From Clostridia bacterium (GTDB lineage Bacteria > Bacillota > Clostridia > Christensenellales > CAG-917): a stretch of DNA of 64,000 nt. Under the pieces are notes generated by a model. That model ran no database searches. It saw nothing but the letters and a program-made list of their open reading frames with translations, and was not told the DNA's origin. Position numbers and translations under genes: made by a program. Positions 8,734-59,575 of the stretch are shown here, piece after piece. How positions within the stretch are numbered: the stretch's first letter is position 1; every line of letters begins with the position of its first letter. The stretch lies in the NCBI GenBank assembly GCA_017461985.1, contig JAFTSA010000001.1, positions 301 to 64,300 on the forward strand, given 5' to 3'.

Positions 8734-9470
8734 TAAATCTATGCAACAACAAAAAAAGCATACGAATTAGCGTAGACGCTTTGAACTAACAAAGAACGGC
8801 GGTGGGCTTCGGCTCACCGCTTGTTATGTTTAATTTGAAAAAAGTAAAACGAAAGATGTGGAAATTGATGGCACTAGCTTGATAAAAATTTAAACTCTCA
8901 AAATGAAAGTTAGGCGTGCGCTTGGATATATACAAGTAGATAATGACCGTGAACAAATAATACGTAAAGTGTCTACCGAAACACACGAAACAACTAGACT
9001 CTTTAAGGGTGGCACTGTAAAAACTAAATACTATAACTACGATATTTACGTCGTTATATAATAAAAGAGCATAACTCGCTTTTATGAATTATGCTCAATT
9101 ATCTAAACTTGTTATGCTAGTTTCAATTTCTTGCGACTAAAGCCAATTTATGTTATCTAAAATGTAAAATTTACAAAACATTACACATGGCGACAAAGAA
9201 ATATACTTTGTATATTAAAGTTGAATCGTTTAGCTCTTCGAATCTTACGCCAGGAACCGCCGAATTATTGGCGGTTTTATTTTTATGCTTTTTGGCGGTT
9301 TTTGCAGATATTAGACGCGTGGCGGTTTTTGTCTTTTTGTCTGAAATCAAAAAACAATAAAAATAAAATTGCATAAAAAAAAATCAAGCGCAAAAACGAT
9401 TTTGAAAACATATTGTGTTTGCGACCAAATTATGGTAAAATGTATGCAGAAATCAACAGGGAAGGTCATT

Positions 9471-21184: not shown

Positions 21185-21209
21185 TTTATTATCGCGAAAG
21201 CGAAATACA

Positions 21210-21308
21210 ACATATCCGATCTTGCTCACCTAAGGCGTGCTGGGCTATGGAGTGCAAGGCGTTAGGGTATGGCGGGAAACGGCCATGCCTCCCATTGTGG
21301 AAAGGAGA
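21210..21308 (+). promoter_or_regulatory. Probable Moco/Tuco (molybdenum/tungsten cofactor) riboswitch
   Basis: The ~120-nt leader contains TCCGA, GGGAAACGG, GCCTCCC (21287-21293) and GGAAAGGAG (21299-21307, also the RBS). These resemble the conserved blocks of the Moco RNA motif as I recall it. It sits upstream of a tungstate/molybdate transporter. Confidence 0.55.
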
Positions 21309-21311
21309 ACT

Positions 21312-22253
21312 ATGAAAAAATTTACAGCTTTTGCACTGGTGCTTTTGCTGGTGCTTTCACTCGTCACGTTTGTGGCTTGCGATCCCGAAACCCCCGACAC
21401 CCCCGATGCACCCAAAGTGGTGAGAATCTCCACAACAACCTCTGTCAACGACAGTGGTCTTATGGCATATCTCCAACCTTACTTTGAAGCACAAACCGGC
21501 TATAAGTGGGAGATTTCCTCAGCAGGCACAGGCGCAGCAATCAACTCTGCAAAATACGGCAACGCAGACGTCATTCTTGTCCACAGCAAGTCACAAGAAG
21601 AAGCATTTGTTTCAGCAGGATTTGGCAGAAAAGTTGAAGGATACGATGCAGAAAGAGTGTCCTTTATGTACAACTACTTTGTTCTTGTAGGACCCACCGC
21701 AGACCCCGCAGGTGCAAGTGATGCAGAAGGTGTCAAGGCAGCATTCAGCGCAATCGCAACCGGCGAACACACCTTTATCTCCCGTGGTGACAAGAGTGGT
21801 ACACACACCGCAGAATTGAAACTTTGGGACGCATCTCTCGGCCTCACCAACGACCCCGCAACAAGCGCAACCTATACTTGGTACGTTTCAGCAGGTCAAG
21901 GTATGGGCGCATGCCTCACCATGGCAAACGAACAAGGTGGCTACTGCCTCACCGACAAAGCAACGTTCCTCTCATACAAGAATCACGCAGACGGTGACAA
22001 ACTCCCCGGCCTTTCAATCCTCTTTGAACAAGACGATGCAATGAAGAACACCTACTCAATGATTGCAGTCAACCCCGACGCACCTTTTGTTGACTCAGTC
22101 ACAGGGGAAGCACTTCCTGCAGGCACTGTCACCATTGACACCACCGCAGCAGACGTCTTCATCAACTGGATGAATAGCGAAACCGCACGCACTCTCATTG
22201 CACAATACGGCATTGAACAATACGGAGCATCCCTCTTTACAGTCATTGAATAA
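21312..22253 (+). CDS. tupA: Tungstate-type ABC substrate-binding lipoprotein
   Basis: AAAGGAG RBS. Lipobox TFVACD. ISTTTSVNDSGL (TTTS motif) and SRGDKSGTH. Confidence 0.8.
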   Translation: MKKFTAFALVLLLVLSLVTFVACDPETPDTPDAPKVVRISTTTSVNDSGLMAYLQPYFEAQTGYKWEISSAGTGAAINSAKYGNADVILVHSKSQEEAFVSAGFGRKVEGYDAERVSFMYNYFVLVGPTADPAGASDAEGVKAAFSAIATGEHTFISRGDKSGTHTAELKLWDASLGLTNDPATSATYTWYVSAGQGMGACLTMANEQGGYCLTDKATFLSYKNHADGDKLPGLSILFEQDDAMKNTYSMIAVNPDAPFVDSVTGEALPAGTVTIDTTAADVFINWMNSETARTLIAQYGIEQYGASLFTVIE

Positions 22254-44604: not shown

Positions 44605-45021
44605 ATGGCAACTAAGAAAGCAGCAGCAAAAAAGGTTCAATATCTCGGCACCGGCAGACGTAAGAAGGCAATCGCACGCGTTCGCCTTATCCCCGGTGAA
44701 GGCAATATCACAATCAACAAGAGAACATTCGAAGATTATTTCCCCGTTGACACAATGAGAATGATCGTCGAACAACCTCTCGTCCTCACCGCAACCAAAG
44801 ACAAGTTTGACGTCGTCGTCAACGTTTATGGTGGTGGCATGACCGGCCAAGCAGGCGCAATCCGTCACGGCATTGCAAGAGCACTCTGTGTTGCAGACAC
44901 CGAAGCATACAGAAGCGCACTTAAGAAAGCTGGCTATCTCACACGTGACCCCCGTGCAAAAGAACGTAAGAAATACGGTCTCCATAAAGCACGTAAGGCA
45001 CCTCAATTCTCAAAGCGTTAA
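44605..45021 (+). CDS. rpsI: 30S ribosomal protein S9
   Basis: [12 protein letters not shown].., [19 protein letters not shown] and C-terminal RKAPQFSKR. Confidence 0.95.
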
Positions 45022-45037
45022 TCGCAGCAAGACAATC

Positions 45038-45068
45038 AAAAAACTCCAACTTCGGTTGGAGTTTTTTT
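45038..45068 (+). terminator. Rho-independent terminator after rpsI
   Basis: actccaac-ttcg-gttggagt followed by T7. Confidence 0.85.
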
Positions 45069-45165
45069 GTGTCTTGCTTTATATATAATGAAAAATAAAA
45101 AACTAAAATTATAGAAATATAGTAAACGTGTGCGCGTGCTCACTCGCGCGTGCGCGACAAATATC

Positions 45166-45500
45166 AAAAATTTTGGGGCAGGGAAAGGAAAATCTGCACC
45201 TTGAAAAAGCAATTTTTGATGAAAACTTAAATATTTTTTGAGAGAATTATTGAAAAATTTTTAGGAAGAAAAAGTTTTTTCTAAGCTTAAAAATATTTTT
45301 TTTAGCCGAAGAAAAAAATTTTTTCAAGTTTGAAATCCTCAAAAAGCACACAAAAACAACAAAAAACAAAAATAAAAAAATTGATTTTTGTAAGGTTTTT
45401 AAGAGAAAAAACGGAAAATTTTTGCTGAAAAACCCGCTAAAAAAGTAAAAATTTTGGGCAAAATTCAGTGAATAAAATGCTTAAAAAACTCAATTTTTTA
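45166..45500. repeat. Degenerate array of palindromic A(4-8)/T(4-8) tracts at ~16-25 bp spacing
   Basis: Examples are caaaaattttgggg, gaaaaagcaatttttg, taaatattttttg, gaaaaatttttag, gaaaaagttttttc, taaaaatatttttttta, gaaaaaaattttttc, aaaaaaattgatttttg, ggaaaatttttgc, gtaaaaattttgggc and taaaaaactcaatttttta. AAAAATTTTGGG(G)CA occurs twice (45166 and 45447). Confidence 0.7.
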
Positions 45501-45894
45501 TGAATAAAAGAGGGCATTTGGTGTATGTAGGGGCGTATATGCACACAATATTCCGTATGTTATAAAATTATACGCATATTTATTCATTCATTCACTTTGC
45601 CAAATTAAAGTGATAAATTAAAAAATGGGCGCTTTTGGCAAAAAGTCATCTTTTCACACCGCTTGAATATATAAAGATATACGCATACACGCGCGAAGAG
45701 GGGAAGGGATGGATTAATTATGCAATTAAAATTGATAAAAAATTAATTTTTTGTTAAAAATCATTTGCCATATCGGCAGTGTGCGTTTATAATGTAGATA
45801 ATTTCATTTGAAATGGAGTAGTATACTCCTTTCAGTGAAATCCAAATTCAGTCCAATAAAAAAGGATAATATTTACTCTATGGAGGTAACAACA

Positions 45895-48519
45895 ATGAAG
45901 CAAAGAAAACTCATCGCTGTTGTAGCAATTGTTTTGGTTCTTGTTCTTTGCGCAAGCGTCTTCGTGGCATGTAATAAAGACGAAGATCCTCGCTACTTGG
46001 CAACAACAAAGACCTACAAGACCTACGCATCATCTTTCGCTACATCATGGAACGTCCTTGACTATGAAACATCTGACCAAGGTGACATGTTCTCATATTC
46101 ATCATCAGGCTTCTATGAATTCGACTATAAGTTTGACGAAAATGGTGACGTTGTTGATGGACAATTCACAATCGTGCCCGTTATGGCATCAGATTATCCC
46201 ACCGACATCACAGCAGAAATCGCAGCAGAACCCGACAACGATTATCTCTTTGACGAAGAAGACACTGGTTATGCATGGTACATCCCTGTCCGCAAAGGCA
46301 TGACATGGGACAATGGCGATCCTATCGAACTCGAAGACTGGATCTACTCCATGAAGGAACAACTTAACCCCTTGTTCATGAACTATCGTGCAGACAGCTA
46401 TTACAGCAGCAGTACAGTCATCCACAATGCAAAGAACTATCTCTACAGTGGCAAGACCATCATGGCAAGTGATGACGGCCTCATCGCCGCAATCAACGGT
46501 GGAGCAGACTTCTACTTCAGCCCCGCAGCATCCAACTATCTCTTTGGACCTTATGGCGGTCTCGCATCAAGCTACGGAATCCTTCCTACATTTGATTCTC
46601 TCTACAATGACTACTTTGTTGTGACCTATGAAGAACAAGCAGCAGCAGCATGGGAAGCAGGCGAAGACCTTGCAGACGGCGCTATCAAGAAGGCAGATTA
46701 CGACACCCTCGAAGCATTTACACAAGCATACGTTGACTACAAGTTCACCGGTGCAGGCGCATCACCACTGCGTGCAGCAATCAGTGAAGTCTACACAATC
46801 ATCGACACACTTACTCCCGTAGAAGAAGGCACAGCAGCAGGTTACTATCTCGTGACAGATGAACTTCTTGCAGCACTCGATGCAGTTTCACAAGGTTTCT
46901 TCGGCGGCAACTATGGTTGGGCAATGTGCAGCTACATCGGTCAATATCCTGAAACCACTTTTGATCAAGTTGGTCTTAGAACAATTGACGATGGCGAACG
47001 CTACGGCCTCATCCTCATCCTCGATGTTCCTTATGTTGACAATGGTTCACACTTCGTTTGGGCATATGACTTCGGCGGCAACTGGCTCGTCAAGCCCGAT
47101 GTCTATGAAGCATGCAAAGTTGCTCCCGCAGACGGAAGCGAACTCTGGACAAGCACATACGGCACATCAATCGAAACATCACCTTCATACGGCCCCTACA
47201 AACTCACCGCATATCAAACCGGTAAGTACTATGAATTCTCAAAGAACGATGCATGGTTTGGTTACAGCATCCCTGAACTTTCAGAAGGCTACTATGAAAC
47301 AGACAAGATCCAATGCTCATTGATGGAAGAATGGGACACCGCATGGATGGCATTCCAAAAGGGTGACCTCGCAGGCATCGGCATGGACGTTAAGATCGCA
47401 GACGAATACAAGACATCAGCACGTGCATACTTCACTCCTGATGACTATGTCAACACCGTCCAAATCCAAACATCAATCGCAGCAGAACCCGATGACGGCA
47501 TCGCAAAAGAAATCCTCCTCAACACCAAGTTCAGAAAGGCACTCTCACTTGCAATTGACCGTGTTGAATATGCAAAACAATGCACCACATCATCACTGGC
47601 AGGCTTTGGTATCTACAACAGCATGCACTACTATGATGTTGAAAACGGTGGCGTCTATCGTAACACCGACATCGCAAAACAAGTTATCTGTGACGTTTAT
47701 GCAGTTGATGTGAACGATTATGATTCACTTGATGATGCATATGCAGCAGTCGTCGGCTACGACCTCGCACTTGCAAAGCAACTCGTTGCTGAAGCAATCG
47801 CAGAAGAAATCGCAGCAGGCACAATCAAGGCAACTGATGTCCTCGACATCACTTACGGCTCATCAGTTGATAGTGAAGCAGCACGTCGTCCTTACAACTT
47901 CTTGAAGGCAGCATGGGAAAAGATCTTTGAAGGCACACAATTTGCAGGCACTGGCTTCGTCTTCAACTATGACGGAACACACGGTGACGCATATGCAAAC
48001 GACTTCAAGGCAGGCCAATACGAAGTCCTCTCAGCAGGTTGGTCCGGCGCAGCATGGGATCCTTTCTACTTCATGATGGCATACATCCACGATGATTACA
48101 GATACGCACAAGGTTGGGATCCTAGAACTGTCAAAGTCACAGTCACCCTCAACAACGTTGACCCTGAAACAGGCGAATGGCTTGGTGAAGGCAATGGCGA
48201 AACCGCATCATTCACAATGGATGCACTCACAATGTGGGAAGAACTTTACGAAGGCACATGGGCAGAAGGCGAATGCAACGTTGAAAACCGCCTCCTCATC
48301 CTCGGCGCACTCGAAAAGACAGTCCTTGAATCATACTGCTCAATCCCCGTTACATACAGCTTTGGTGCAGCACTCCGCAGCTATCAAATCGAAGCATTCA
48401 CCGACACATACAACACATTCATGGGTTGGGGCGGCATCAAGTACTACAGCTACAACTACAACGATGGCGACTGGGCAAGATACGTTGACAGCCAAAACGG
48501 TCAACTCAACTACAAATAA
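45895..48519 (+). CDS. Oversized family-5 (Opp/Dpp-type) ABC substrate-binding lipoprotein (~874 aa)
   Basis: GGAGG RBS. Lipobox VFVACNKDE. SBP_bac_5-like block YIPVRKGMTWDNGDPIELEDWIYSM and YYEFSKNDAWFGY. Very acidic, with strongly biased codons. Confidence 0.8.
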   Translation: MKQRKLIAVVAIVLVLVLCASVFVACNKDEDPRYLATTKTYKTYASSFATSWNVLDYETSDQGDMFSYSSSGFYEFDYKFDENGDVVDGQFTIVPVMASDYPTDITAEIAAEPDNDYLFDEEDTGYAWYIPVRKGMTWDNGDPIELEDWIYSMKEQLNPLFMNYRADSYYSSSTVIHNAKNYLYSGKTIMASDDGLIAAINGGADFYFSPAASNYLFGPYGGLASSYGILPTFDSLYNDYFVVTYEEQAAAAWEAGEDLADGAIKKADYDTLEAFTQAYVDYKFTGAGASPLRAAISEVYTIIDTLTPVEEGTAAGYYLVTDELLAALDAVSQGFFGGNYGWAMCSYIGQYPETTFDQVGLRTIDDGERYGLILILDVPYVDNGSHFVWAYDFGGNWLVKPDVYEACKVAPADGSELWTSTYGTSIETSPSYGPYKLTAYQTGKYYEFSKNDAWFGYSIPELSEGYYETDKIQCSLMEEWDTAWMAFQKGDLAGIGMDVKIADEYKTSARAYFTPDDYVNTVQIQTSIAAEPDDGIAKEILLNTKFRKALSLAIDRVEYAKQCTTSSLAGFGIYNSMHYYDVENGGVYRNTDIAKQVICDVYAVDVNDYDSLDDAYAAVVGYDLALAKQLVAEAIAEEIAAGTIKATDVLDITYGSSVDSEAARRPYNFLKAAWEKIFEGTQFAGTGFVFNYDGTHGDAYANDFKAGQYEVLSAGWSGAAWDPFYFMMAYIHDDYRYAQGWDPRTVKVTVTLNNVDPETGEWLGEGNGETASFTMDALTMWEELYEGTWAEGECNVENRLLILGALEKTVLESYCSIPVTYSFGAALRSYQIEAFTDTYNTFMGWGGIKYYSYNYNDGDWARYVDSQNGQLNYK

Positions 48520-48586
48520 GTCTTTGATTTGGAACTAAGAGCAAACTCTTAACCCAAGCATGATTTATAATCAAGCGATGAAATAT

Positions 48587-48610
48587 GCTACTCCGCGAAA
48601 GCGGAGTAGC
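48587..48610 (+). other. Perfect 10-bp GAAA-tetraloop hairpin after the binding-protein gene
   Basis: gctactccgc-gaaa-gcggagtagc. No T-run follows. Confidence 0.6.
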
Positions 48611-48716
48611 ACACATCGTTTAAAAGGATATTTTTTCAAAAGCCGCAAGGCAGTTATTTTTTTGTTTGGCGACTTTTGAAAAAATATCAATCGAACAAAA
48701 GCAATAGGAGACAACA

Positions 48717-49661
48717 ATGATTAAATACACTATAAAAAGATTTTGCTTGATGTTATTTACATTGTTTTCCATTATGACAATCTGCTTCGTGCTGATTAAG
48801 TCACTTCCTTTGGTTGTTGACGTGGGATTGGGCAAAGATGCCGAATTCTTGGAAGGTATCATTGAAGCACGTGGCTATAGAAAGCCGGTTATGGAACAGT
48901 ATGTCACATATCTTGGAAGAATTTTCCAAGGTGACTTTGGTGTTGGTATTAATATGGAAAAGGGAACATATGTCCTCGACAACTTCCTTCAAAGACTTCC
49001 CGCAACCATGATTATCAACATTTACGCAATGTTGATTTCAGTGCCTGTTGGCCTTGGTCTCGGCATCTTTGCAGCACTGAAAAAGAACAAGTGGCAAGAC
49101 CAAGTCATTTCAACCGGCGTTATGATTTTCATCTCAGTGCCCAGCTATGTTTACGCATTCTTGGTGCAATATTTGCTTTGCTTCAAGGGAGGACTTCCTT
49201 TGCAGATGAAAAACGGAACGGACTGGCTAAGTTGGGATATGTTTGTGTCTGTCCTTGCGCCTGTTTTGTCGCTGTCCTTTGGTACAATTGCGGGCTTTGC
49301 GAGATATACAAGAGCAGAGCTCACCGAAGTGCTCACAAGTGACTTTATGCTCCTTGCACGCACAAAGGGTTTGACCAGAGGTCAAGCAACCATCCGTCAC
49401 GCACTCCGCAACGCAATGGTCCCCATCTTCCCCATGATTATTGGTGAATTTGTTGGCATCATTGGTGGCTCACTGATCATTGAACAAATCTTCGGTGTCC
49501 CCGGCGTTGGCAGATTGTATCTTAACTCAATCACAACTTTGGACTATGACTACTTTATGTTCTTGTCCATGTTCTATACAGCGATAGGTCTTGCAGCCGG
49601 TATCCTTGTTGACTTGAGCTATGGCTTTATTGATCCTAGAATTAGAATGGGGGCGAAATAA
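48717..49661 (+). CDS. OppB/DppB-type ABC permease
   Basis: AGGAG RBS. EAA-like region LLARTKGLTRGQATIRHALRNA. Confidence 0.85.
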   Translation: MIKYTIKRFCLMLFTLFSIMTICFVLIKSLPLVVDVGLGKDAEFLEGIIEARGYRKPVMEQYVTYLGRIFQGDFGVGINMEKGTYVLDNFLQRLPATMIINIYAMLISVPVGLGLGIFAALKKNKWQDQVISTGVMIFISVPSYVYAFLVQYLLCFKGGLPLQMKNGTDWLSWDMFVSVLAPVLSLSFGTIAGFARYTRAELTEVLTSDFMLLARTKGLTRGQATIRHALRNAMVPIFPMIIGEFVGIIGGSLIIEQIFGVPGVGRLYLNSITTLDYDYFMFLSMFYTAIGLAAGILVDLSYGFIDPRIRMGAK

Positions 49662-49663
49662 TT

Positions 49664-51304
49664 ATGGAAAGAACTGAATACGTAATCAATAAGTCTTCAT
49701 TTGAATTTGTCAACCTTGACAGCAACATCCATGACAACAAACTTGACACCAAGCCTGTTGGTTATCTTCGTGATGCTCTCCGCCGTTTTGCAAAAAACAA
49801 AGGCTCTGTGGTTGCAGCAGGAATCATTTTGATCCTTGTTTTGTTTGCAATCATCGCACCTATGGCATCAGATTATACTGTTTCTTTCAGAGACCCTTAT
49901 TTTAGAACAACTCTTCCCATCTGCACCGCAGCAAAGAACAATCCCAATATGGATTTCTGGGATGGTTGCTCGGAAGTTGAGCTTGCTCAAACCACATTTG
50001 AACTTTACTACGGCATCAACGTAGAATCAGGTCAAGAAGCGGTCAAGCGCGGAGAATATACCGTCCGTCAAGTCACAAGAGAGTTGAAAAACAACAAGAC
50101 AAGAGTGGACAATTTGTACACCTTCCGACTTAACTCTTACTACAAGGTGGGTGCATACTACAAGAACTTGACCCTTGAAGAATATCGTTCAATTCAAGAA
50201 TATCAAGACAGAACAGGCAAGCAAGTGCTTTATCCCGTTGTTGCAAAGAAAGAACGTGTCACCGCACTTCTTGACCAACTTGATCCCAGCACCGCATCAT
50301 CAAAGACATATATCAACGATGACGGCAACTTCTGGTATAAGGTCAAGATCTCATCAAAAGCACCTTACACTCCCACAGCGGTCTTTGATGAAAATGGCAA
50401 CTACATAAACAACTACGCAGTTGATCCTACCTCAGACAAGGACTTGTACACAAGCAAGATGCTTGTTGAGGGCGACACCAAACAATATCTCTACGGCATC
50501 AAAAACCAAAATGGTTTTGAAGTGAGAATCAACTACTATGAATACTTCTGCTATGTTCACTATATGGCAGGGGACGGCATTGAATCTCCTCACTTCATTT
50601 TCGGCACAAATGGTGACGGACAAGACATCTTCACATGCCTTGCAGCAGGTGCAAGATTCAGCTTCTTGTTGGCAATTCTTGTTTCAATCATCAACCTCAC
50701 ACTGGGCGCAATCTACGGCGCAATCGAAGGTTACTATGGCGGTCTTGCAGATATCTGCATGGAAAGAATTTCAGACATCTTGGGCGCAATCCCTATGATG
50801 ATCGTCCTCACCCTTGTCAGATTGCAACTTTCAAACAAGACAGATATTCCTTCACAGGACATCGCCCTTGTTTCAATGATCATATCCTTCCTGGCAACTG
50901 GTTGGATTGGCATGGCATCAAGCGTCCGTATGCAATTCTACCGTTTCAAGAATCAGGAATATGTCCTCGCTGCACGCACTCTTGGCGCAAGAGACAGACG
51001 CATCATCTTGAAACATATCTTGCCCAACAGCTTGGGAACACTCATCACAGGATCAGTCCTTGTCATTCCTGGTGTTATGTTCAGTGAATCATCATTGGCA
51101 TACCTGGGCATTTTGGACCTTTCAACCTCAACGTCAACCTCAATCGGTGTGTTGCTGGCAAACGGCCAACCCTACTTGACAACATATCCTCACGTCATTT
51201 TGTTCCCCGCATTGTTCATCTCATTGTTGATGCTGTCATTCAACCTGTTCGGCAATGGTCTTAGAGACGCATTCAACCCGCAACTTAGAGGATCGGAGGG
51301 CTAA
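49664..51304 (+). CDS. OppC/DppC-type ABC permease with a ~250-aa extracytoplasmic insertion after TM1
   Basis: N-terminal RRFAKNKGSVVAAGIILILV, a ~250-aa hydrophilic segment, then the conserved core (AARTLGARDRRIILKHILPN). 546 aa, against roughly 300 as I recall for this family. Confidence 0.8.
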   Translation: MERTEYVINKSSFEFVNLDSNIHDNKLDTKPVGYLRDALRRFAKNKGSVVAAGIILILVLFAIIAPMASDYTVSFRDPYFRTTLPICTAAKNNPNMDFWDGCSEVELAQTTFELYYGINVESGQEAVKRGEYTVRQVTRELKNNKTRVDNLYTFRLNSYYKVGAYYKNLTLEEYRSIQEYQDRTGKQVLYPVVAKKERVTALLDQLDPSTASSKTYINDDGNFWYKVKISSKAPYTPTAVFDENGNYINNYAVDPTSDKDLYTSKMLVEGDTKQYLYGIKNQNGFEVRINYYEYFCYVHYMAGDGIESPHFIFGTNGDGQDIFTCLAAGARFSFLLAILVSIINLTLGAIYGAIEGYYGGLADICMERISDILGAIPMMIVLTLVRLQLSNKTDIPSQDIALVSMIISFLATGWIGMASSVRMQFYRFKNQEYVLAARTLGARDRRIILKHILPNSLGTLITGSVLVIPGVMFSESSLAYLGILDLSTSTSTSIGVLLANGQPYLTTYPHVILFPALFISLLMLSFNLFGNGLRDAFNPQLRGSEG

Positions 51305-51307
51305 ACT

Positions 51308-53491
51308 ATGGAAAAGAAACTTGAAGTCAAAAACCTTAGAATATCTTTCCGTACTGACGCAGGCAAAGTTCAAGCTGTCCGTGGCATAGACTTTGACCTC
51401 TACAAGGGTGAAACCCTTGCAATCGTTGGCGAATCCGGTTCAGGAAAGTCAGTCACAAACAAAGCTATCATCGGCATTTCAGCACCCAACGCAATCATTG
51501 AAAGTGGTGAAATCCTTTATGATGGTATGGACCTTCTTCAAATCAGTGAAGACGATTTCCACAAACTTCGTGGCGACAAGATTGCAATGATCTTCCAAGA
51601 TCCTTTGTCAGCACTGGACCCCATCAACCGCATCGGTATGCAACTTACCGAAGCAATGATCCTTAAAAACCGCGCAAACAGACGCGAATCAAGAAGGCTG
51701 TTCAACCGCACAATTAAGAATCTTTGCACAGCAATGAACGGTGCAATGGGCGTTGACGCAAACAGCGAACAAGGCAAGATCAACAAGCAAAAAATCACCG
51801 ACTTTAACACCTTTGAGAAACTCCATCTCAAGCTTGAAGGCGCATACAACGAAGCACACACCAATGCAAGCCTTGCAATCGAAGATATTGAAGACCTCCT
51901 TTTCCACATTGAGAAGAAGGCTGTCAGTGACTTCGGCGCAGAAAAGAGCAACATCATCCGTGCAGCAAAGAAGTCTGTTCACGAATATGTCTGTTCAGAC
52001 AAAGTTGTTGCACTGGCAGAGGCATTTAAGGAAGCATCAAAGGGTTGCACAAGAGCAAAGGACTATACCCCTTGTGTCGAACCTTTGAAGGCACTCCTTG
52101 AAGAATTGAAGGAAGGAGCAGCCAAGCTGTCCCCCAACTACTTTGCATTGGCATACTTCCTCACCTTTGGCAAGGAAGAACTTCCCAAACTGCCCACTGA
52201 TGAGCTCAATGTCTATCTCCGTAGATACCTTGACGACAACTTCATGCTCGCTTTCATCGAAGATGAAAAGAAGGGTTTGATTTATTCACGTGAATGTTCA
52301 CTGGACAACAGAGCAGAAGCTATCGCAACCATCCAATCATTGAGAGATGTGTTCACAGCAGAAACCCTGGACAAGAAGGCATGCAAAGCAGCTGCAAAAC
52401 AAATGACAGATGCAGTTGCAAAGGCAATCGACAAGCTCGCTCTTGTTAAGGATTCAACAGCATACACCTTTAAGGCAAGTCTTAATCGCGCAATCAACAC
52501 ATATTTCACAGCAGGTCCTTCAAACGCAAAAGAAGAAAAGCGTTTCAACAAGGAAAAGAAGAAATATGACAAGATCATTGCAAAGGGCAAGACACCTGAT
52601 TACTCAGTTATCCCTGCAAGAATCATCGACATCGACATCGCAAAGGAAAATATCCTTCATGTCATCGACAAGGTCACAGCTGCATTTAAGACTGCAATTG
52701 ACAATCGTGACAACTACGATGCAGACAAAGAAGCAGTGGCAATGATTGACTTCCTCAAAGAAAAGGCACAAGCAGTTGCATACCGCGTCACAAAGCGTAT
52801 CGCAAAGAGCAAGGCCCTGAAACTTATGGAAGAAGTGGGCATTGCAGAACCTAAGAAGAGATATCGTCAATATCCTTTCCAATTCTCAGGTGGTATGCGT
52901 CAACGTATCGTCATCGCAATTGCACTTGCTGCAAACCCTGACATCCTCATCTGTGACGAACCTACAACCGCTCTTGACGTGACAATTCAAGCACAAATCC
53001 TTGAACTCATCAACAAGATCAAGAGAGAAAGAAATTTGTCCATCATCTTCATCACCCACGACCTCGGCGTTGTGGCAAACATGGCTGACCGTATTGCAGT
53101 TATGTACGCAGGCAAGATTGTTGAAACTGGCACATCAGAAGATGTCTTCTATTCACCTGCACACCCCTATACATGGGCACTTCTTTCATCAATGCCTGAC
53201 CTTGACACCAATGAGAAGTTGGAAGCCATCCCCGGCACACCTCCCAATATGATCTATCCTCCCAAGGGAGATGCATTTGCAGCACGTAATAAGTATGCAA
53301 TGAAGATCGATTTCGAGTTGCAACCTCCCATGTTCAAGATCAGCGATACACACTCTGCTGCAACTTGGCTTTTGCACCCCGATGCACCCAAAGTGGAATT
53401 GCCCAAGGCAATCTCTGCACGTATCGAACGCATGAAGACAAAGAATAACATCGGAGCAGAACCCCAAAATACTGAAGAAGGAGAAAACTGA
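51308..53491 (+). CDS. OppD-type ABC ATPase with a ~365-aa insertion between the Q-loop and the ABC signature
   Basis: GESGSGKS (aa 41-48) and MIFQDP (aa 94-99). FSGGMRQR appears only at aa 526, then ILICDEPTTALD. C-terminal oligopeptide-ATPase tail PAHPYTWALL. Confidence 0.85.
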   Translation: MEKKLEVKNLRISFRTDAGKVQAVRGIDFDLYKGETLAIVGESGSGKSVTNKAIIGISAPNAIIESGEILYDGMDLLQISEDDFHKLRGDKIAMIFQDPLSALDPINRIGMQLTEAMILKNRANRRESRRLFNRTIKNLCTAMNGAMGVDANSEQGKINKQKITDFNTFEKLHLKLEGAYNEAHTNASLAIEDIEDLLFHIEKKAVSDFGAEKSNIIRAAKKSVHEYVCSDKVVALAEAFKEASKGCTRAKDYTPCVEPLKALLEELKEGAAKLSPNYFALAYFLTFGKEELPKLPTDELNVYLRRYLDDNFMLAFIEDEKKGLIYSRECSLDNRAEAIATIQSLRDVFTAETLDKKACKAAAKQMTDAVAKAIDKLALVKDSTAYTFKASLNRAINTYFTAGPSNAKEEKRFNKEKKKYDKIIAKGKTPDYSVIPARIIDIDIAKENILHVIDKVTAAFKTAIDNRDNYDADKEAVAMIDFLKEKAQAVAYRVTKRIAKSKALKLMEEVGIAEPKKRYRQYPFQFSGGMRQRIVIAIALAANPDILICDEPTTALDVTIQAQILELINKIKRERNLSIIFITHDLGVVANMADRIAVMYAGKIVETGTSEDVFYSPAHPYTWALLSSMPDLDTNEKLEAIPGTPPNMIYPPKGDAFAARNKYAMKIDFELQPPMFKISDTHSAATWLLHPDAPKVELPKAISARIERMKTKNNIGAEPQNTEEGEN

Positions 53492-53493
53492 TT

Positions 53494-54792
53494 ATGAGTG
53501 AAATTTTGAACGAACAAGAAGTCCTTCTCCAAGAAGAAACAGTTGAAGCAACCCCCGAAAAGCGCGAAATCAGTGATGAAGTGCTTTTGAAGGTTGAAAA
53601 TCTTTGCCAATTCTTCAAGCTTGGTCAATCCACATTGAAGGCAGTCAACAACGTCAGTTTTGAGGTCAAAAAGGGCGAAGTTTTCGGTTTGGTTGGCGAA
53701 TCCGGTTGTGGCAAAACCACAACAGGCAGAAGCATTATCAAACTCTACAACTGCACATCAGGCAATGTCTATTTTGACGGCAAGAGAATTTGCGCAGGCA
53801 CTGGTTCATACAAAGACACCAAAAAGGCAGCCTTCAAAGAAGTTGTTGATGCATACAAGTCAAAAGATGCAGACAAAGCAACAAAGAAGGCCGCTCTTGA
53901 CAAATATCTTGCAGTAGCCAAAGAAGAAAACGCAAAAATTAAAGCCGCAAAACACGACCAAAAGAAGTGTGACAAGGACTACGCAAAGCAAAAGATTGCA
54001 GAAGTTAAGGCTGAATATCTCCCCAAACTCAAAGAGATGGACAAGAAATCTCCTGAGTATAAGGAAACTCTCAAAAACTTCTTGAAGGAATATCGTCTTG
54101 CAAGCAAGGAACGTTTGGTCACCAAGATCCAAATGGTCTTCCAAGATCCTATCGCATCCCTTGACCCCCGTATGACCGTCAAAGAAATCATCGCAGAAGG
54201 TCTTATCATCAAGGGTATCCGTGACAAGAAAGTCATCGAAGAAAAGGTCTATGAAGTCCTTGAAAAGGTCGGCCTTGTCAGAGAACACGCAGGCAGATAT
54301 CCTCACGAATTCTCCGGCGGTCAAAGACAACGTATCGGTGTGGCACGTTCAATCATCATGAACCCCAAGCTCATCATCGCAGACGAACCTGTCAGTGCTC
54401 TTGACGTGTCAATTCAAGCACAGGTCATCAACCTCTTGAACGACCTTCGTCATGAACTTGGCCTCACAATTCTCTTCATCGCCCACGACCTTTCAGTTGT
54501 CAAATACTTCTCAGATCGTATCGCAGTTATGTATTTCGGCAATATGGTTGAATTGACCACCTCAGAAGAGCTGTTCAAGCATCCTCTGCATCCTTATACA
54601 AGATCATTGTTGTCAGCAATTCCTCTTCCTGACCCTATTTATGAAAAGAAGAGAGAACGTATTGTCTACAATCCTCTTGCTGATCACGACTACTCAGTGG
54701 ACAAGCCTACACTTCGCGAAGTGGCTCCTGGACACTTTGTTTCTTGCAACGACGCAGAGTTCAAGAAATATCAAGAGATTCTCGCAAAATAA
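53494..54792 (+). CDS. OppF-type ABC ATPase with a ~90-aa lysine-rich insertion before the Q-loop
   Basis: GESGCGKTT (aa 68-76), FDGKRI (aa ~94), then a K/A/E-rich stretch up to MVFQDP (aa 214-219). FSGGQRQR, and a PLHPYTRSLL tail. Confidence 0.85.
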   Translation: MSEILNEQEVLLQEETVEATPEKREISDEVLLKVENLCQFFKLGQSTLKAVNNVSFEVKKGEVFGLVGESGCGKTTTGRSIIKLYNCTSGNVYFDGKRICAGTGSYKDTKKAAFKEVVDAYKSKDADKATKKAALDKYLAVAKEENAKIKAAKHDQKKCDKDYAKQKIAEVKAEYLPKLKEMDKKSPEYKETLKNFLKEYRLASKERLVTKIQMVFQDPIASLDPRMTVKEIIAEGLIIKGIRDKKVIEEKVYEVLEKVGLVREHAGRYPHEFSGGQRQRIGVARSIIMNPKLIIADEPVSALDVSIQAQVINLLNDLRHELGLTILFIAHDLSVVKYFSDRIAVMYFGNMVELTTSEELFKHPLHPYTRSLLSAIPLPDPIYEKKRERIVYNPLADHDYSVDKPTLREVAPGHFVSCNDAEFKKYQEILAK

Positions 54793-54794
54793 CA

Positions 54795-55211
54795 GTGGAC
54801 AAAGCAAAGAAAACACTTATAACATATTTGATTACCATCGCAGTTGCCGCCGTCTTGATGATTGGCGTCAGCGCGTTGCGTGGGGCATTTTCAGTGGCGC
54901 TCACCCAAAAGGAAGCAATACAATGTGCCTGTGATGCATTCTTTGTTGTTGGCATGGTATATCTGTGTGCAGGAGGCGTTATGTGGGCTTCCAGAAAGGG
55001 CACCTTCGACGGATTGGGATACTCCTTTTCATTGTTGAAACAACGCTATACCAAAAACAAAAGAAATTGGCAAAACGAAGAATCCTTTTATGACTACAAA
55101 GAACGTAAGGCAGAAAAGAAAAAGGAAAAGAGAAGCAACCATTTGGTGATCATCGGCGGAATCTTTGTTATCGTTGCAGCAATACTTCTTGTGGTATTCT
55201 ACTATGCATAA
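54795..55211 (+). CDS. Small membrane protein (DUF3899-like), start uncertain
   Basis: Two or three hydrophobic spans flank a basic loop KRNWQNEESFYDYKERKAEKKKEKR. The start is either GTG 54795 or the tracked ATG 54744, which overlaps the ATPase gene. Confidence 0.55.
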   Translation: MDKAKKTLITYLITIAVAAVLMIGVSALRGAFSVALTQKEAIQCACDAFFVVGMVYLCAGGVMWASRKGTFDGLGYSFSLLKQRYTKNKRNWQNEESFYDYKERKAEKKKEKRSNHLVIIGGIFVIVAAILLVVFYYA

Positions 55212-55228
55212 AGATTGAAAGCACAATC

Positions 55229-55257
55229 AGCGGACACGAAAGTGTCCGCTTTTTTTT
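55229..55257 (+). terminator. Rho-independent terminator ending the Opp-like operon
   Basis: agcggacac-gaaa-gtgtccgct followed by T8. Confidence 0.85.
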
Positions 55258-55423
55258 GTTCGTAATCCGCGAGCAAAAACACATTAAAATCTTGAAACAA
55301 GGGAAATAATCAACAAAAGAAAAAGATTTGTCATTTATTTGCACAAATTATCACACAAATTTGCTTTAGCGCTTTACTTTCTTAAAGAAAAAGTGTAAAA
55401 TATAGGTATAAATGAGGCAACCT

Positions 55424-55750
55424 ATGAATCTTTTTGAAATCTTTGCAAAACTTAATACCGCTGAAGAAGTAGAAGCATTTTTTGACGATCTCTGCACCTA
55501 TGCAGAAATCGAAAAAATGGAGCAACGTGTAGAAGCCGCACAAATGTTCCTTGACGGCGCAACCTACAATCAAGTCATACAAAAAACAGAAATATCATCT
55601 GCAACATTGTCCCGTGTGTCACGTTGTATACGTCACGGAAGCGGCGGCTATAGCGATATTCTCCGCAGACTTGTGGCAGAGCAAAGAGCGGCCGCAGAGG
55701 GCGCAGAAGAGGCCACTGAACCTGCAACAGAAGAAGGCGCAGAGGAATAA
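55424..55750 (+). CDS. YerC/YecD (TrpR-like) family protein with an acidic Ala/Glu tail
   Basis: GAGG 6 nt before ATG 55424. LCTYAEIEKMEQRVEAAQMFLDGATYNQVIQKTEISSATLSRVSRCIRHGSGGY. Confidence 0.75.
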   Translation: MNLFEIFAKLNTAEEVEAFFDDLCTYAEIEKMEQRVEAAQMFLDGATYNQVIQKTEISSATLSRVSRCIRHGSGGYSDILRRLVAEQRAAAEGAEEATEPATEEGAEE

Positions 55751-58104: not shown

Positions 58105-58252
58105 ACGAAATTCAAAAGTAATTAAAATTATTTTTGGAAAAATTTTTCAGCGTTCTATTTGGCTAAAATTTTGATTTTGCTGTTTTTATAGTGTCAAAAT
58201 CACCCACACGTACGCACGTGCACGTCAATTTGTCATAGACAAATTTGAGAAA

Positions 58253-59575
58253 GTGGTTTATACTTACTATATGGCTTGCAAAATCGTGCTGAATGCACAA
58301 TATCTAAAAACAAACAAAATCGCACTTGCCCTGTCCGGGGGCAGAGATTCAATGGCGTTGGCTCATATCTTGAAAAGTATGGGCGCGCCTTTTTTTGCAG
58401 TCAATTTTGACCACGGAATCCGTGGGGCAGAGTCCAAAAAGGACAGCGAATTTGTATGTGACTGGTGTTTGAAAAATGGGATAGAGTGTGTCAGCATTGC
58501 CTTTGACACTCCTTCATACGCAAGAGAAAAGGGTATGACCATTGAGCAAGCGGGCAGAGAGTTGAGATATTTCCACCTTGACCGCCTTGTAGAAGAGGGA
58601 AAATGTGACCTTGTTGCCTTGGCTCACCACAAAGACGACCAAGCGGAAACCTTGATTATGCGTATCATCCGCGGCACAGGTGTCCGTGGGCTTAGAGGTA
58701 TGAGCGAGGTGAATGGTCATTACGTCCGTCCCCTTATCAATTACACCCGTGAAGACATCAACGAATACGTCAAGGAAAACGATATTCCTTACGTTGAGGA
58801 CAGCACCAACACCGACGACACATACACAAGAAACTTCATCCGCAAGGAAATGGCAGTGCTGAAAGAAAGATTCCCCTCTCTTGATGAATCCCTTGCGCGT
58901 CTTTCACGAAACGCCAGTGAAATTGACGACTATCTTCTCGGCAAAGTGGGTGAAATAGCGGTTGTTGACGGAGAGTGCAATATGCCCCTCACCGACCTAA
59001 ACACCCCTGCCGTAGCCAAAAGAAAAATACTCTGCATTTTTGAAAAGTTGGGAGTAAGACAAGACGTTGAAGAAAGACATTATCCTTTGATATTTGACCT
59101 TGCAAGTGCAGAAAACGGCAAGAAGTTGAGCCTTCCTCACGGCATTGAGGTGCACAAGGACGGAGAAAATCTTGTTTTCAGCGCTGTTGTAAACCCTAGC
59201 AATATTGACGAAATCCCCTTTGAAAAGAAGTCTGTTGAGGGCGTCATCACAGTCACTCCCACTGACAAACTTCAGTTTGAAGAGGGTGAACTCATAATTG
59301 ACCTTAATAAAATCCCAAAGACGGCGGTGCTTCGTCACCCTCGTGAAAAGGATAGAATCCACAAATTCGGTGGGGGAAGCAAGAGCCTAGGCGACTTTTT
59401 GACAGACAAAAAAGTGCCTTTGAGGAAAAGAGCAGACCTTGTTGTCTGCGCCTCTGCACCCAGTGGATATAAAAACTCAAACCAAGTGCTTTTTGTCCTA
59501 GGAGTGGAAATCTCCGCCGACGTGAAGGTTGAGGACGGAAGTGATATGGCAAAAATCTCAAAACCAAACAAATAA
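58253..59575 (+). CDS. tilS: tRNA(Ile)-lysidine synthetase
   Basis: PP-loop ALSGGRDSMAL, followed by hpt as in Bacillus. The start is either GTG 58253 or ATG 58271. Confidence 0.85.
   Translation: MVYTYYMACKIVLNAQYLKTNKIALALSGGRDSMALAHILKSMGAPFFAVNFDHGIRGAESKKDSEFVCDWCLKNGIECVSIAFDTPSYAREKGMTIEQAGRELRYFHLDRLVEEGKCDLVALAHHKDDQAETLIMRIIRGTGVRGLRGMSEVNGHYVRPLINYTREDINEYVKENDIPYVEDSTNTDDTYTRNFIRKEMAVLKERFPSLDESLARLSRNASEIDDYLLGKVGEIAVVDGECNMPLTDLNTPAVAKRKILCIFEKLGVRQDVEERHYPLIFDLASAENGKKLSLPHGIEVHKDGENLVFSAVVNPSNIDEIPFEKKSVEGVITVTPTDKLQFEEGELIIDLNKIPKTAVLRHPREKDRIHKFGGGSKSLGDFLTDKKVPLRKRADLVVCASAPSGYKNSNQVLFVLGVEISADVKVEDGSDMAKISKPNK

Follow-up and report, generated by a model that had tools for sequence, protein, structure and literature searches.

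A long spacer of helically phased A/T tracts upstream of an Opp-like importer operon in a gut Clostridia bacterium

The 64,000-nucleotide stretch of a Clostridia bacterium genome analyzed here (assembly GCA_017461985.1, contig JAFTSA010000001.1; called the window below, with positions counted from its first letter) contains the ribosomal protein gene rpsI, which ends at 45021, and an Opp-like ATP-binding cassette (ABC) importer operon, whose first gene encodes a substrate-binding protein (SBP) and starts with the ATG at 45895. The 873 bp between them (45022-45894) raise the question of what so long a spacer is for. An earlier note, made from the letters alone, had described it as free of open reading frames (ORFs) and built of A-tract/T-tract palindromes, and had offered as candidate roles a giant UP element or nucleoid-protein landing pad, iteron-like binding sites, or the decayed remnant of an inserted element. 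We found that the A/T tracts of the spacer are phased with the DNA helix and carry the strongest predicted curvature in the window, that this phasing has been kept while the underlying sequence turned over, that the length of the 3′ part is strictly conserved, and that the spacer ends in a near-invariant promoter-like sequence and leader. The reading that we favor, and to which we give about an even chance, is that the spacer is an extended upstream control region of the importer operon with an intrinsically curved module.

Helically phased A/T tracts in a non-coding spacer

The gap after rpsI is genuine non-coding DNA. Between 45022 and 45894 there are no genes, tRNAs, Rfam RNAs, conserved ORFs or tandem repeats of a defined unit, and no ORF reaches 60 codons, the longest being 58 amino acids on the minus strand (45036-45212); the earlier note was right about both the extent and the content of this gap. 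Its remark that the spacer is unusually long for the contig also holds: when ORFs of at least 120 amino acids, picked by eye, are taken as genes, no other gap in the window is as long, the runner-up measuring about 635 bp (8734-9368). The G+C content of the spacer is 0.29, compared with a window mean of 0.45. No other 350 bp of the window are as AT-rich as 45159-45508 (G+C content of 0.23), and the window's least stable 100-bp duplex is formed by 45204-45303.

To describe the tracts, we counted as a tract any run of A or of T that is 4 nt or longer and compared the spacer with two types of control, namely, dinucleotide shuffles and run-preserving shuffles, in which all homopolymer runs are kept and their order alone is shuffled. 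Tracts make up 48% of the bases in 45176-45525. The spacer contains 10 motifs of the form A(n)N(0-4)T(n), while dinucleotide shuffles contain 2.5 ± 1.4 (none of 1,000 reaches 10); 9 lie in the core, where run-preserving shuffles yield 5.8 ± 1.6 (P = 0.04). The reverse type, T(n)A(n), occurs three times in the core and is not enriched. The word AAAAATTTTGGG, at 45166 and again at 45447 (repeat family D9), accounts for the repeat at a distance of 281 bp that had been pointed out earlier.

The spacing of the tracts is far more regular than their composition requires. The tract spectrum of 45160-45510 peaks at 10.75 bp with a power of 7.9, a value reached by none of 300 dinucleotide shuffles (power of 1.35 in the 10- to 11.25-bp band; z of about 11 to 15) and by none of 1,000 run-preserving shuffles (1.5 ± 0.8; P < 0.001). 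Ranked by strength, the top 12 of the 350-bp sliding windows along the 64 kb are without exception within the spacer, with or without normalization for tract density. Within 45390-45510 the period is 11.0 bp (power of 8.1, reached by none of 300 shuffles). The signal is clearly above both types of shuffle; the earlier note had named the lack of such a signal as what would refute its observation, which therefore stands.

A/T runs that lie one helical turn apart predict bent DNA. In line with this, a wedge-model trajectory placed the largest predicted bend of the 64 kb at centers 45390-45507, where it peaks at 45441 with 113 degrees per 63 bp; the mean over the window is 26 ± 14 degrees. Bend maxima in the shuffles were 73 ± 10 degrees for the dinucleotide type and 82 ± 11 degrees for the run-preserving type, 0.2% of which reach the observed value (P = 0.002). 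The proposal of the earlier note that the spacer is made of phased A/T tracts, and hence of intrinsically bent DNA, is thus supported by both the 10.75- to 11-bp period and the top predicted curvature of the window. Its emphasis on a core of six palindromes at 45204-45324 needs to be amended in one respect: the tracts there are phased, mainly with a two-turn signal of about 20.5 bp, but their curvature is moderate (47 to 64 degrees), and the maximum lies 3′ of them, at 45390-45510. A search for tandem repeats, which the note had suggested for the spacer, returned poly-A-like rows only (Tandem Repeats Finder), and we therefore regard the element as a phased array of tracts and not as repeats of a defined unit. 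At the level of sequence, the spacer qualifies as predicted curved DNA of helically phased A-tracts.

The runner-up gap at 8734-9368 is also AT-rich (G+C content of about 0.3). In it, TGGCGGTTTTT is repeated directly, with three copies that start at about 9268, 9294 and 9321, and it lacks the A/T-tract phasing and curvature of the rpsI spacer.

Conservation of phase and length among strains and a sister species

Looking for the spacer in related genomes, a check that had also been suggested, we compared the window with ten ruminant-gut metagenome contigs that encode the exact RpsI protein, out of many such contigs (L001 to L010, referred to as strains), and with a sister species represented by the sheep-colon metagenome-assembled genome RGIG5502 (L011), the nearest one in GTDB. 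The spacer occupies the same site in all ten strains, with lengths of 858 to 1,268 bp, and in the sister species, where it measures 876 bp. Its identity to the window is 88 to 92% in eight strains, 100% in L006 and 92.6% in L005 (3′ 742 bp only). The rpsI DNA of the sister species is 91.6% identical, and 29 of its 31 differences are at third codon positions. The rpsI terminator hairpin is kept in all of these genomes.

Divergence among the strains is distributed unevenly. It amounts to 7 to 30% in 45166-45340, 5 to 15% in 45341-45510, 8 to 14% in 45511-45705 and 0.5 to 2% in 45706-45895; the neutral proxy that we used, four-fold sites of the neighboring GH31 gene, diverges by 11 to 17%. Indels are limited to 45029-45340. 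Across the ten strains, 45062-45340 shows at least 10 indel events and 150 variable sites, while the 516 bp of 45341-45856, which contain many homopolymer runs and 97 variable sites, show no indel at all. The 10.75-bp signal is kept in 10 of 10 strains, and phase is kept in the indel-tolerant 45166-45340 as well; an insertion after 45257 in L004 fills 21 alignment columns, or about two helical turns. Conservation is tighter at certain boxes: variable sites number only 4 per 40 bp in 45462-45501 and in 45542-45581 and just 1 among the 40 bp of 45742-45781, and 45782-45861, in the leader region, has a single one.

The comparison with the sister species extends this pattern over a greater distance. 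Identity to the window is 49% over 45166-45340, 64% over 45341-45480 and 90% over 45706-45880. A single 1-nt indel separates the two species over 45481-45880, and it falls outside both 45481-45600 and 45601-45705. The tracts of the sister species are phased at 11.0 bp with a power of 8.45 (run-preserving shuffles, 1.97 ± 0.76; P < 0.001), and when phase is measured from the conserved anchor TGAATAAAAG, the proximal 120 bp agree with those of the window to within about 25 to 30 degrees (about 1 bp). From these alignments we conclude that constraint acts on the phased arrangement of the tracts, on how long the 3′ half is and on the module of promoter and leader, and not on the primary sequence of the array. 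The exact length of the linker (45601-45705), which has been retained across 42% substitution, is the strongest of the indirect signs that geometry matters.

More distant relatives are labeled Christensenella, Catabacter or Christensenellales. The spacers downstream of rpsI in five loci of other genera (L016, L017, L018, L025 and L029) are about 490 to 920 bp long with a G+C content of 0.44 to 0.49; they are not homologous to the window spacer and show no comparable 10- to 11-bp signal. Two of them have peculiarities of their own that are unrelated to the window spacer: that of L016 (6700-7030) contains several GGGGTCCCC-containing units and a duplicated gtccaatttttggacaaaacaagcccgtcccca, and that of L018 (6480-6830) contains a direct duplication of about 200 bp. 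A scan of the JGI metagenomes with the invariant leader sequence gave no match, and the organism was found in ENA assemblies only.

Promoter-proximal module, upstream boxes and importer cassette

The features of the locus are listed in Table 1. The last part of the spacer is its best-conserved segment. The candidate main promoter, P1, has the same sequence in the ten strains and nearly the same sequence in the sister species, and this near-invariance, together with the consensus match, argues that it fires, with transcription expected to start near 45800. UP elements, which are binding sites for the C-terminal domain of the RNA polymerase alpha subunit (alpha-CTD), lie at −40 to −60 and have the consensus AAAWWTWTTTTNNNAAAA. 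A UP-element-like match, ATTAATTTTTTGTTAAAA, at 45742-45759 has two mismatches to this consensus, stops 6 bp short of the −35 hexamer, is invariant in the strains and covers about 20 bp alone; the palindrome A6-TTA-AT6 at 45737-45752, which overlaps it, is likewise invariant. By sequence, the putative P1 is therefore preceded by an A+T-rich, UP-like tract at the canonical position. This tract is of normal size, and the curved array lies 255 to 600 bp further upstream, outside the reach of alpha-CTD without looping or wrapping, so that the name “giant UP element,” proposed earlier for the whole spacer, does not fit the definition. As a side observation, a perfect match to the UP consensus occurs elsewhere in the window, at 58124-58141.

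The predicted leader (45799-45910) folds with its hairpin at −20.1 kcal/mol (z = −2.3). The 45802-45840 sequence is single copy in the window, with no second copy of the hairpin, and differs by one substitution in the sister species; being near-invariant, the hairpin leaves no covariation to test. The stem-loop could serve as an mRNA stabilizer or as a protein operator. By eye, it also bears a weak resemblance to parS (10 of 16 positions).

Table 1. Positions of features in and around the spacer
Feature	Position	Strand	Basis or remark
rpsI intrinsic terminator	45038-45067	+	13-bp stem hairpin, A-run 5′, T-run 3′
Variable 5′ segment	45069-45165	.	strain insertions; identity to sister species 0.38
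A(n)T(n) palindrome series, loose array	45166-45340	.	variable, indel-tolerant; tract character and phase kept
Strongly phased A/T-tract array	45341-45510	.	maximum predicted curvature of the window
Distal conserved block	45481-45600	+	81% identical to sister species, gapless; motifs read directly
Linker	45601-45705	.	length exactly kept; 58% identical to sister species, no indel
AT-rich tract directly 5′ of the −35 box	45716-45762	+	UP-like match and invariant palindrome
Putative main sigma-70/sigA-type promoter (P1), TTGCCA-17-TATAAT	45765-45793	+	11 of 12 consensus positions
Stem-loop at predicted mRNA 5′ end	45801-45841	+	two TTTCA-N(1-2)-TGAAA palindromes flanking a GGAGTA/TACTCC stem
Ribosome-binding site, ATG and signal peptide (to Cys26) of the SBP_bac_5 lipoprotein	45882-45972	+	GGAGG at 45882-45886
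Opp-like ABC importer operon, predicted to be driven by the spacer	45973-55420	+	Pfam assignments

Further upstream, the distal conserved block contains several short motifs. The palindrome A6-CTCA-AT6 (45484-45499) is invariant, and direct repeats of GTATGT at 45523 and 45555 are 32 bp apart. An imperfect palindrome within the block includes the extended −10-like sequence TGtTATAAA (45558-45566), a possible distal promoter, P2, whose activity we infer from sequence. The block also holds the hairpin CACTTTGCCAAATTAAAGTG. A box of the form TATAAA-NN-TATACGCATA recurs in the linker, where its second copy (45670-45687) follows the first by 109 bp, or about ten turns (family D10).

Runs of alternating purines and pyrimidines are also concentrated here. 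Two GC-rich, Z-DNA-prone runs (45126-45139 and 45145-45156) end the variable 5′ segment, and a 19-nt run lies in the linker (45677-45695). Of the 25 runs of at least 11 nt in the window, 5 are in the spacer, which makes up 1.4% of the sequence (about 0.34 expected). The spacer is thus enriched in tracts with a potential to form Z-DNA. The longest such run of the window is found elsewhere, in an intergenic region just 5′ of the gene starting at 58253 (58205-58225; 21 nt; CACACGTACGCACGTGCACGT).

The 5′ end of the spacer is variable. The A-run before and the T-run after the stem make the rpsI terminator readable as a terminator on both strands. Beyond it, L002 (6470-6898) and L005 (6470-6947) carry a GC-rich insert of about 350 to 400 bp, and L002, L005 and L009 (6553-6644) have a roughly 97-bp block with alternating GCGCGC/CACGCG runs at its borders. 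The sites of these inserts correspond to window positions 45073-45156, and the inserts gave no Rfam match. A short allele patch at 45443-45466 was considered as a small inversion and set aside, the fit of the reverse complement (12 of 16 positions) being only marginally better than that of the direct strand (10 of 16).

Downstream, the operon encodes, in this order, the SBP, OppB, OppC, a fused OppD, OppF and a DUF3899 protein. We compared it among the ten strains and ten further loci (L091 to L100). Homology between strains, at 93 to 96%, extends from the upstream genes through the spacer, ends at about 45971-45990, where the signal peptide ends, and returns at about 96% near 55300-55420, just before a TrpR-like gene at 55424. 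In between, the operon occurs in at least 5 allele classes among strains that share an identical RpsI and flanks of about 95% identity. The SBPs have 824 to 966 residues and nearly the same signal peptide in all classes; their protein identity is 28 to 36% across most class pairs and 46% for one pair. At the DNA level, no identity can be detected over the mature SBP; oppB is about 67% identical and oppD/F 80 to 82%, and permease sizes vary among strains (314 to 344 and 528 to 767 amino acids). On its left, the exchangeable importer cassette is thus bounded by the conserved spacer, promoter and signal peptide.

Elsewhere in the window, a Moco riboswitch (molybdenum/tungsten cofactor; Rfam RF01055; 68 bits against a gathering threshold of 36) is located at 21203-21323 on the plus strand, upstream of an ORF starting at about 21237.

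Readings of the spacer and their weight

If the spacer is an extended control region, it would be organized in two modules. The promoter-proximal module (45716-45894) would comprise the UP-like tract, a near-consensus sigA-type promoter of conventional and presumably strong type, the 5′ stem-loop leader and the ribosome-binding site. The second, a fixed-length upstream module (about 45341-45715), would combine the conserved palindromic and direct-repeat boxes with the phased tract array, which may extend upstream in looser form to about 45166. The phased tracts would impose a stable intrinsic bend, and through wrapping or looping this bend would present upstream DNA, or protein presumably bound to the conserved boxes, to RNA polymerase on a fixed face and at a fixed distance. 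The target would be P1 or the candidate distal promoter at 45558-45566, which lies at the canonical distance of 50 to 170 bp downstream of the bend maximum. Expression of the operon would thereby be set or modulated, probably in a manner that depends on supercoiling or temperature. In Firmicutes and in Escherichia coli, phased A-tracts that lie upstream of promoters stimulate transcription, and an upstream promoter-architecture element or protein landing pad, the latter among the roles first proposed, is a plausible leading idea; an effect of the bend on transcription is among the steps that we infer.

Several points weigh against this reading. The bend maximum lies 255 to 375 bp upstream of the −35 box of P1, and classical curvature and UP effects act within about 150 bp. 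The maximum does fall within about 150 bp upstream of the start of the candidate distal promoter, while it is beyond that distance for P1, but the link to the distal promoter consists of an invariant extended −10 match alone, without a conserved −35 box. CodY boxes are absent from the spacer, and no regulator was identified. The sequence of 45166-45340 diverges as much as the neutral proxy or more, and constraint there could be very weak. The predicted curvature depends on the wedge parameters used, although phased and unphased control sequences behaved as expected with them and the periodicity result is independent of them. The comparison between species, finally, is one of two species.

The strongest competing explanation is that the spacer is an element of chromosome topology, at which gyrase, HU or another nucleoid protein would wrap or land and which would absorb or insulate the supercoils generated by transcription. 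The location suits such a role: the spacer lies right after the terminator of the rplM-rpsI operon, a heavily transcribed ribosomal protein operon, and before the next co-directional operon. Five of the window's 25 alternating purine/pyrimidine runs flank the array, and nowhere else in the window are 350 bp as AT-rich, or a 100-bp duplex as unstable, as in the spacer; Z-DNA-prone flanks and an easily melted AT core would both contribute to this function. The distance of the array from the main promoter and the retention of long rpsI-downstream spacers in other genera point the same way, as does the period of 10.75 to 11 bp, which, in the part of the literature drawn on here, is usually tied to negatively supercoiled DNA (PMC4132750). 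The spacers of the other genera are, however, neither AT-rich nor clearly phased, and the exact conservation of length from array to boxes to promoter indicates a geometry that is linked to the promoter. We consider the topological role rather unlikely as an alternative, and it and the control-region reading are not mutually exclusive. An RNA function is less probable still. The 3′ half (about 45573-45894) might be a long leader, or a separate small RNA made from the distal promoter, that is conserved for what it does as RNA. This would account for the invariant extended −10-like sequence and the conserved initiation region in all strains and the sister species, for the indel-free conservation downstream of 45558-45566 and for the local hairpin at 45592-45611. 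Against it, Rfam gave no match at gathering thresholds and chance-level matches alone at E values of ≤10, the fold of 45572-45700 is no better than that of shuffles (z = −0.75), RNAalifold on nine sequences found compensation in 2 of 55 pairs (covariation term, +0.07), no terminator follows, and 45601-45705 is just 58% identical between species. We judge it improbable.

Equally improbable, in our view, is that the spacer is largely unconstrained filler, left by insertions, deletions and recombination at the edge of an exchanged cassette, with tracts made by slippage and only the last 190 bp functional. The spacer does border a hypervariable locus, the strains show mosaic haplotype patches, and 45069-45340 combines neutral-or-higher divergence with indels and strain-specific insertions. 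Slippage, however, does not produce helical phasing, and the phasing observed exceeds that of run-preserving shuffles, persists in the sister species after the sequence has turned over and is accompanied by an absence of indels over 516 homopolymer-rich bp; nor is there any phage or plasmid similarity or ORF remnant in the spacer. The same two absences, together with the shared site in all strains and the sister species and the constrained length, speak against the decayed inserted element that had been suggested earlier. The suggestion of iteron-like sites fares no better, since no unit recurs and the palindromes vary, both among themselves and from strain to strain. A replication origin or iteron array is the reading to which we give the least credence, next to none. 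The DNA is AT-rich and easily melted, and 45467-45801 contains five DnaA-box-like 9-mers with one mismatch; yet no DnaA box is perfect, near-matches in the window number 66, with 65.6 expected by chance, the repeat families comprise two or three copies each (70 to 93% identity), no replication gene is found among the Pfam-annotated genes of related loci around the spacer, and the cumulative GC skew shows a weak local maximum, not a minimum. A more elaborate proposal joins control and exchange: the spacer would be a “dock” of fixed geometry, with its curved array, Z-DNA-prone flanks and boxes assembling a nucleoprotein complex that controls and topologically insulates the hypervariable cassette, and it would, with the invariant promoter, leader and signal peptide, supply the left homology arm for exchange of the whole operon, thus acting as an expression-and-exchange platform. 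We hold this for a long shot, and any role of the spacer in cassette exchange is speculation.

Other identities were tried and rejected. A mobile-element relic (miniature inverted-repeat transposable element, insertion sequence or prophage) found no phage, plasmid or viral-contig match, no presence/absence polymorphism and no conserved ORF. A CodY-regulated opp promoter was discarded when the CodY box AATTTTCWGAAAATT had no match in the spacer at up to 3 mismatches. For a structured RNA in 45480-45720, there was no covariation, and the fold z-scores were −0.75 and −0.47. A small protein is contradicted by the longest stretch that is stop-free in all strains, 45 codons with no conserved start and with radical substitutions. 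Rfam searches at gathering thresholds gave no relevant match in the spacer or in five related loci (for the spacer, chance matches alone at E values of ≤10), and no tRNA or transfer-messenger RNA genes were found.

Among known systems, the spacer most resembles the phased A-tract curved DNA that lies upstream of bacterial promoters, of which it would be an unusually long form. One example is Clostridium perfringens plc, which is preceded by three phased A-tracts; others are the Alu156 and Bal129 promoters of Bacillus phage SP82, with curved DNA upstream of them. Like these, the spacer has tracts of A5 to A8 at the helical period 5′ of a putative sigA-type promoter in a Firmicute, with a strong predicted static bend and an A+T-rich UP-like tract abutting the −35 box. 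Classical curved promoters have 3 to 5 tracts, whereas the array of the spacer spans about 330 bp, or about 30 helical turns; in addition, its bend maximum is 255 to 375 bp away from the main −35 box, many of its tracts are A(n)T(n) palindromes, and alternating purine/pyrimidine runs are associated with it. Another likeness is to the AT-boxes of the ComK type, which in Bacillus subtilis are A4-N5-T4 pairs spaced by whole helical turns. Motifs at 45204, 45374, 45484 and 45737 fit A4N5T4, with approximately whole-turn spacing between neighbors. We take this as a lead and not as membership, as it may simply restate the phasing. A ComK gene was not seen in the window, and no search was aimed at ComK in the lineage.

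On the scale of whole genomes, an A-tract periodicity of about 11 bp is described, in the portions of these studies relevant here, as a curvature-related feature of bacterial DNA (PMC3940949, PMC3431218, PMC4132750), and what physiological function it has in prokaryotes is called unclear there (PMC3940949). As far as those portions go, the A-tract clusters of bacterial genomes (PMC3940949, PMC3431218, PMC3372288, PMC4761138, PMC4132750) share with the spacer the 10.75- to 11-bp period, the interpretation in terms of curvature or supercoil packaging, and an intergenic location. They are presented as genome-wide statistical signals, whereas the spacer is a single, very strong and positionally conserved array at a fixed spacing from a promoter.

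Three properties set this array apart: its phasing outlasts its sequence, it is held at an exact distance from a near-invariant promoter, and it occurs in uncultured gut Clostridia. Together, they offer a clean test, set up by nature, of whether such DNA serves transcription, topology or both. The locus also couples one conserved, putative control region to operon alleles whose binding proteins are about 30% identical in otherwise near-identical strains. For the ecology of gut microbes, this variation of the cassette may matter more than the spacer itself, as diversification of the substrate niche or of phage receptors.

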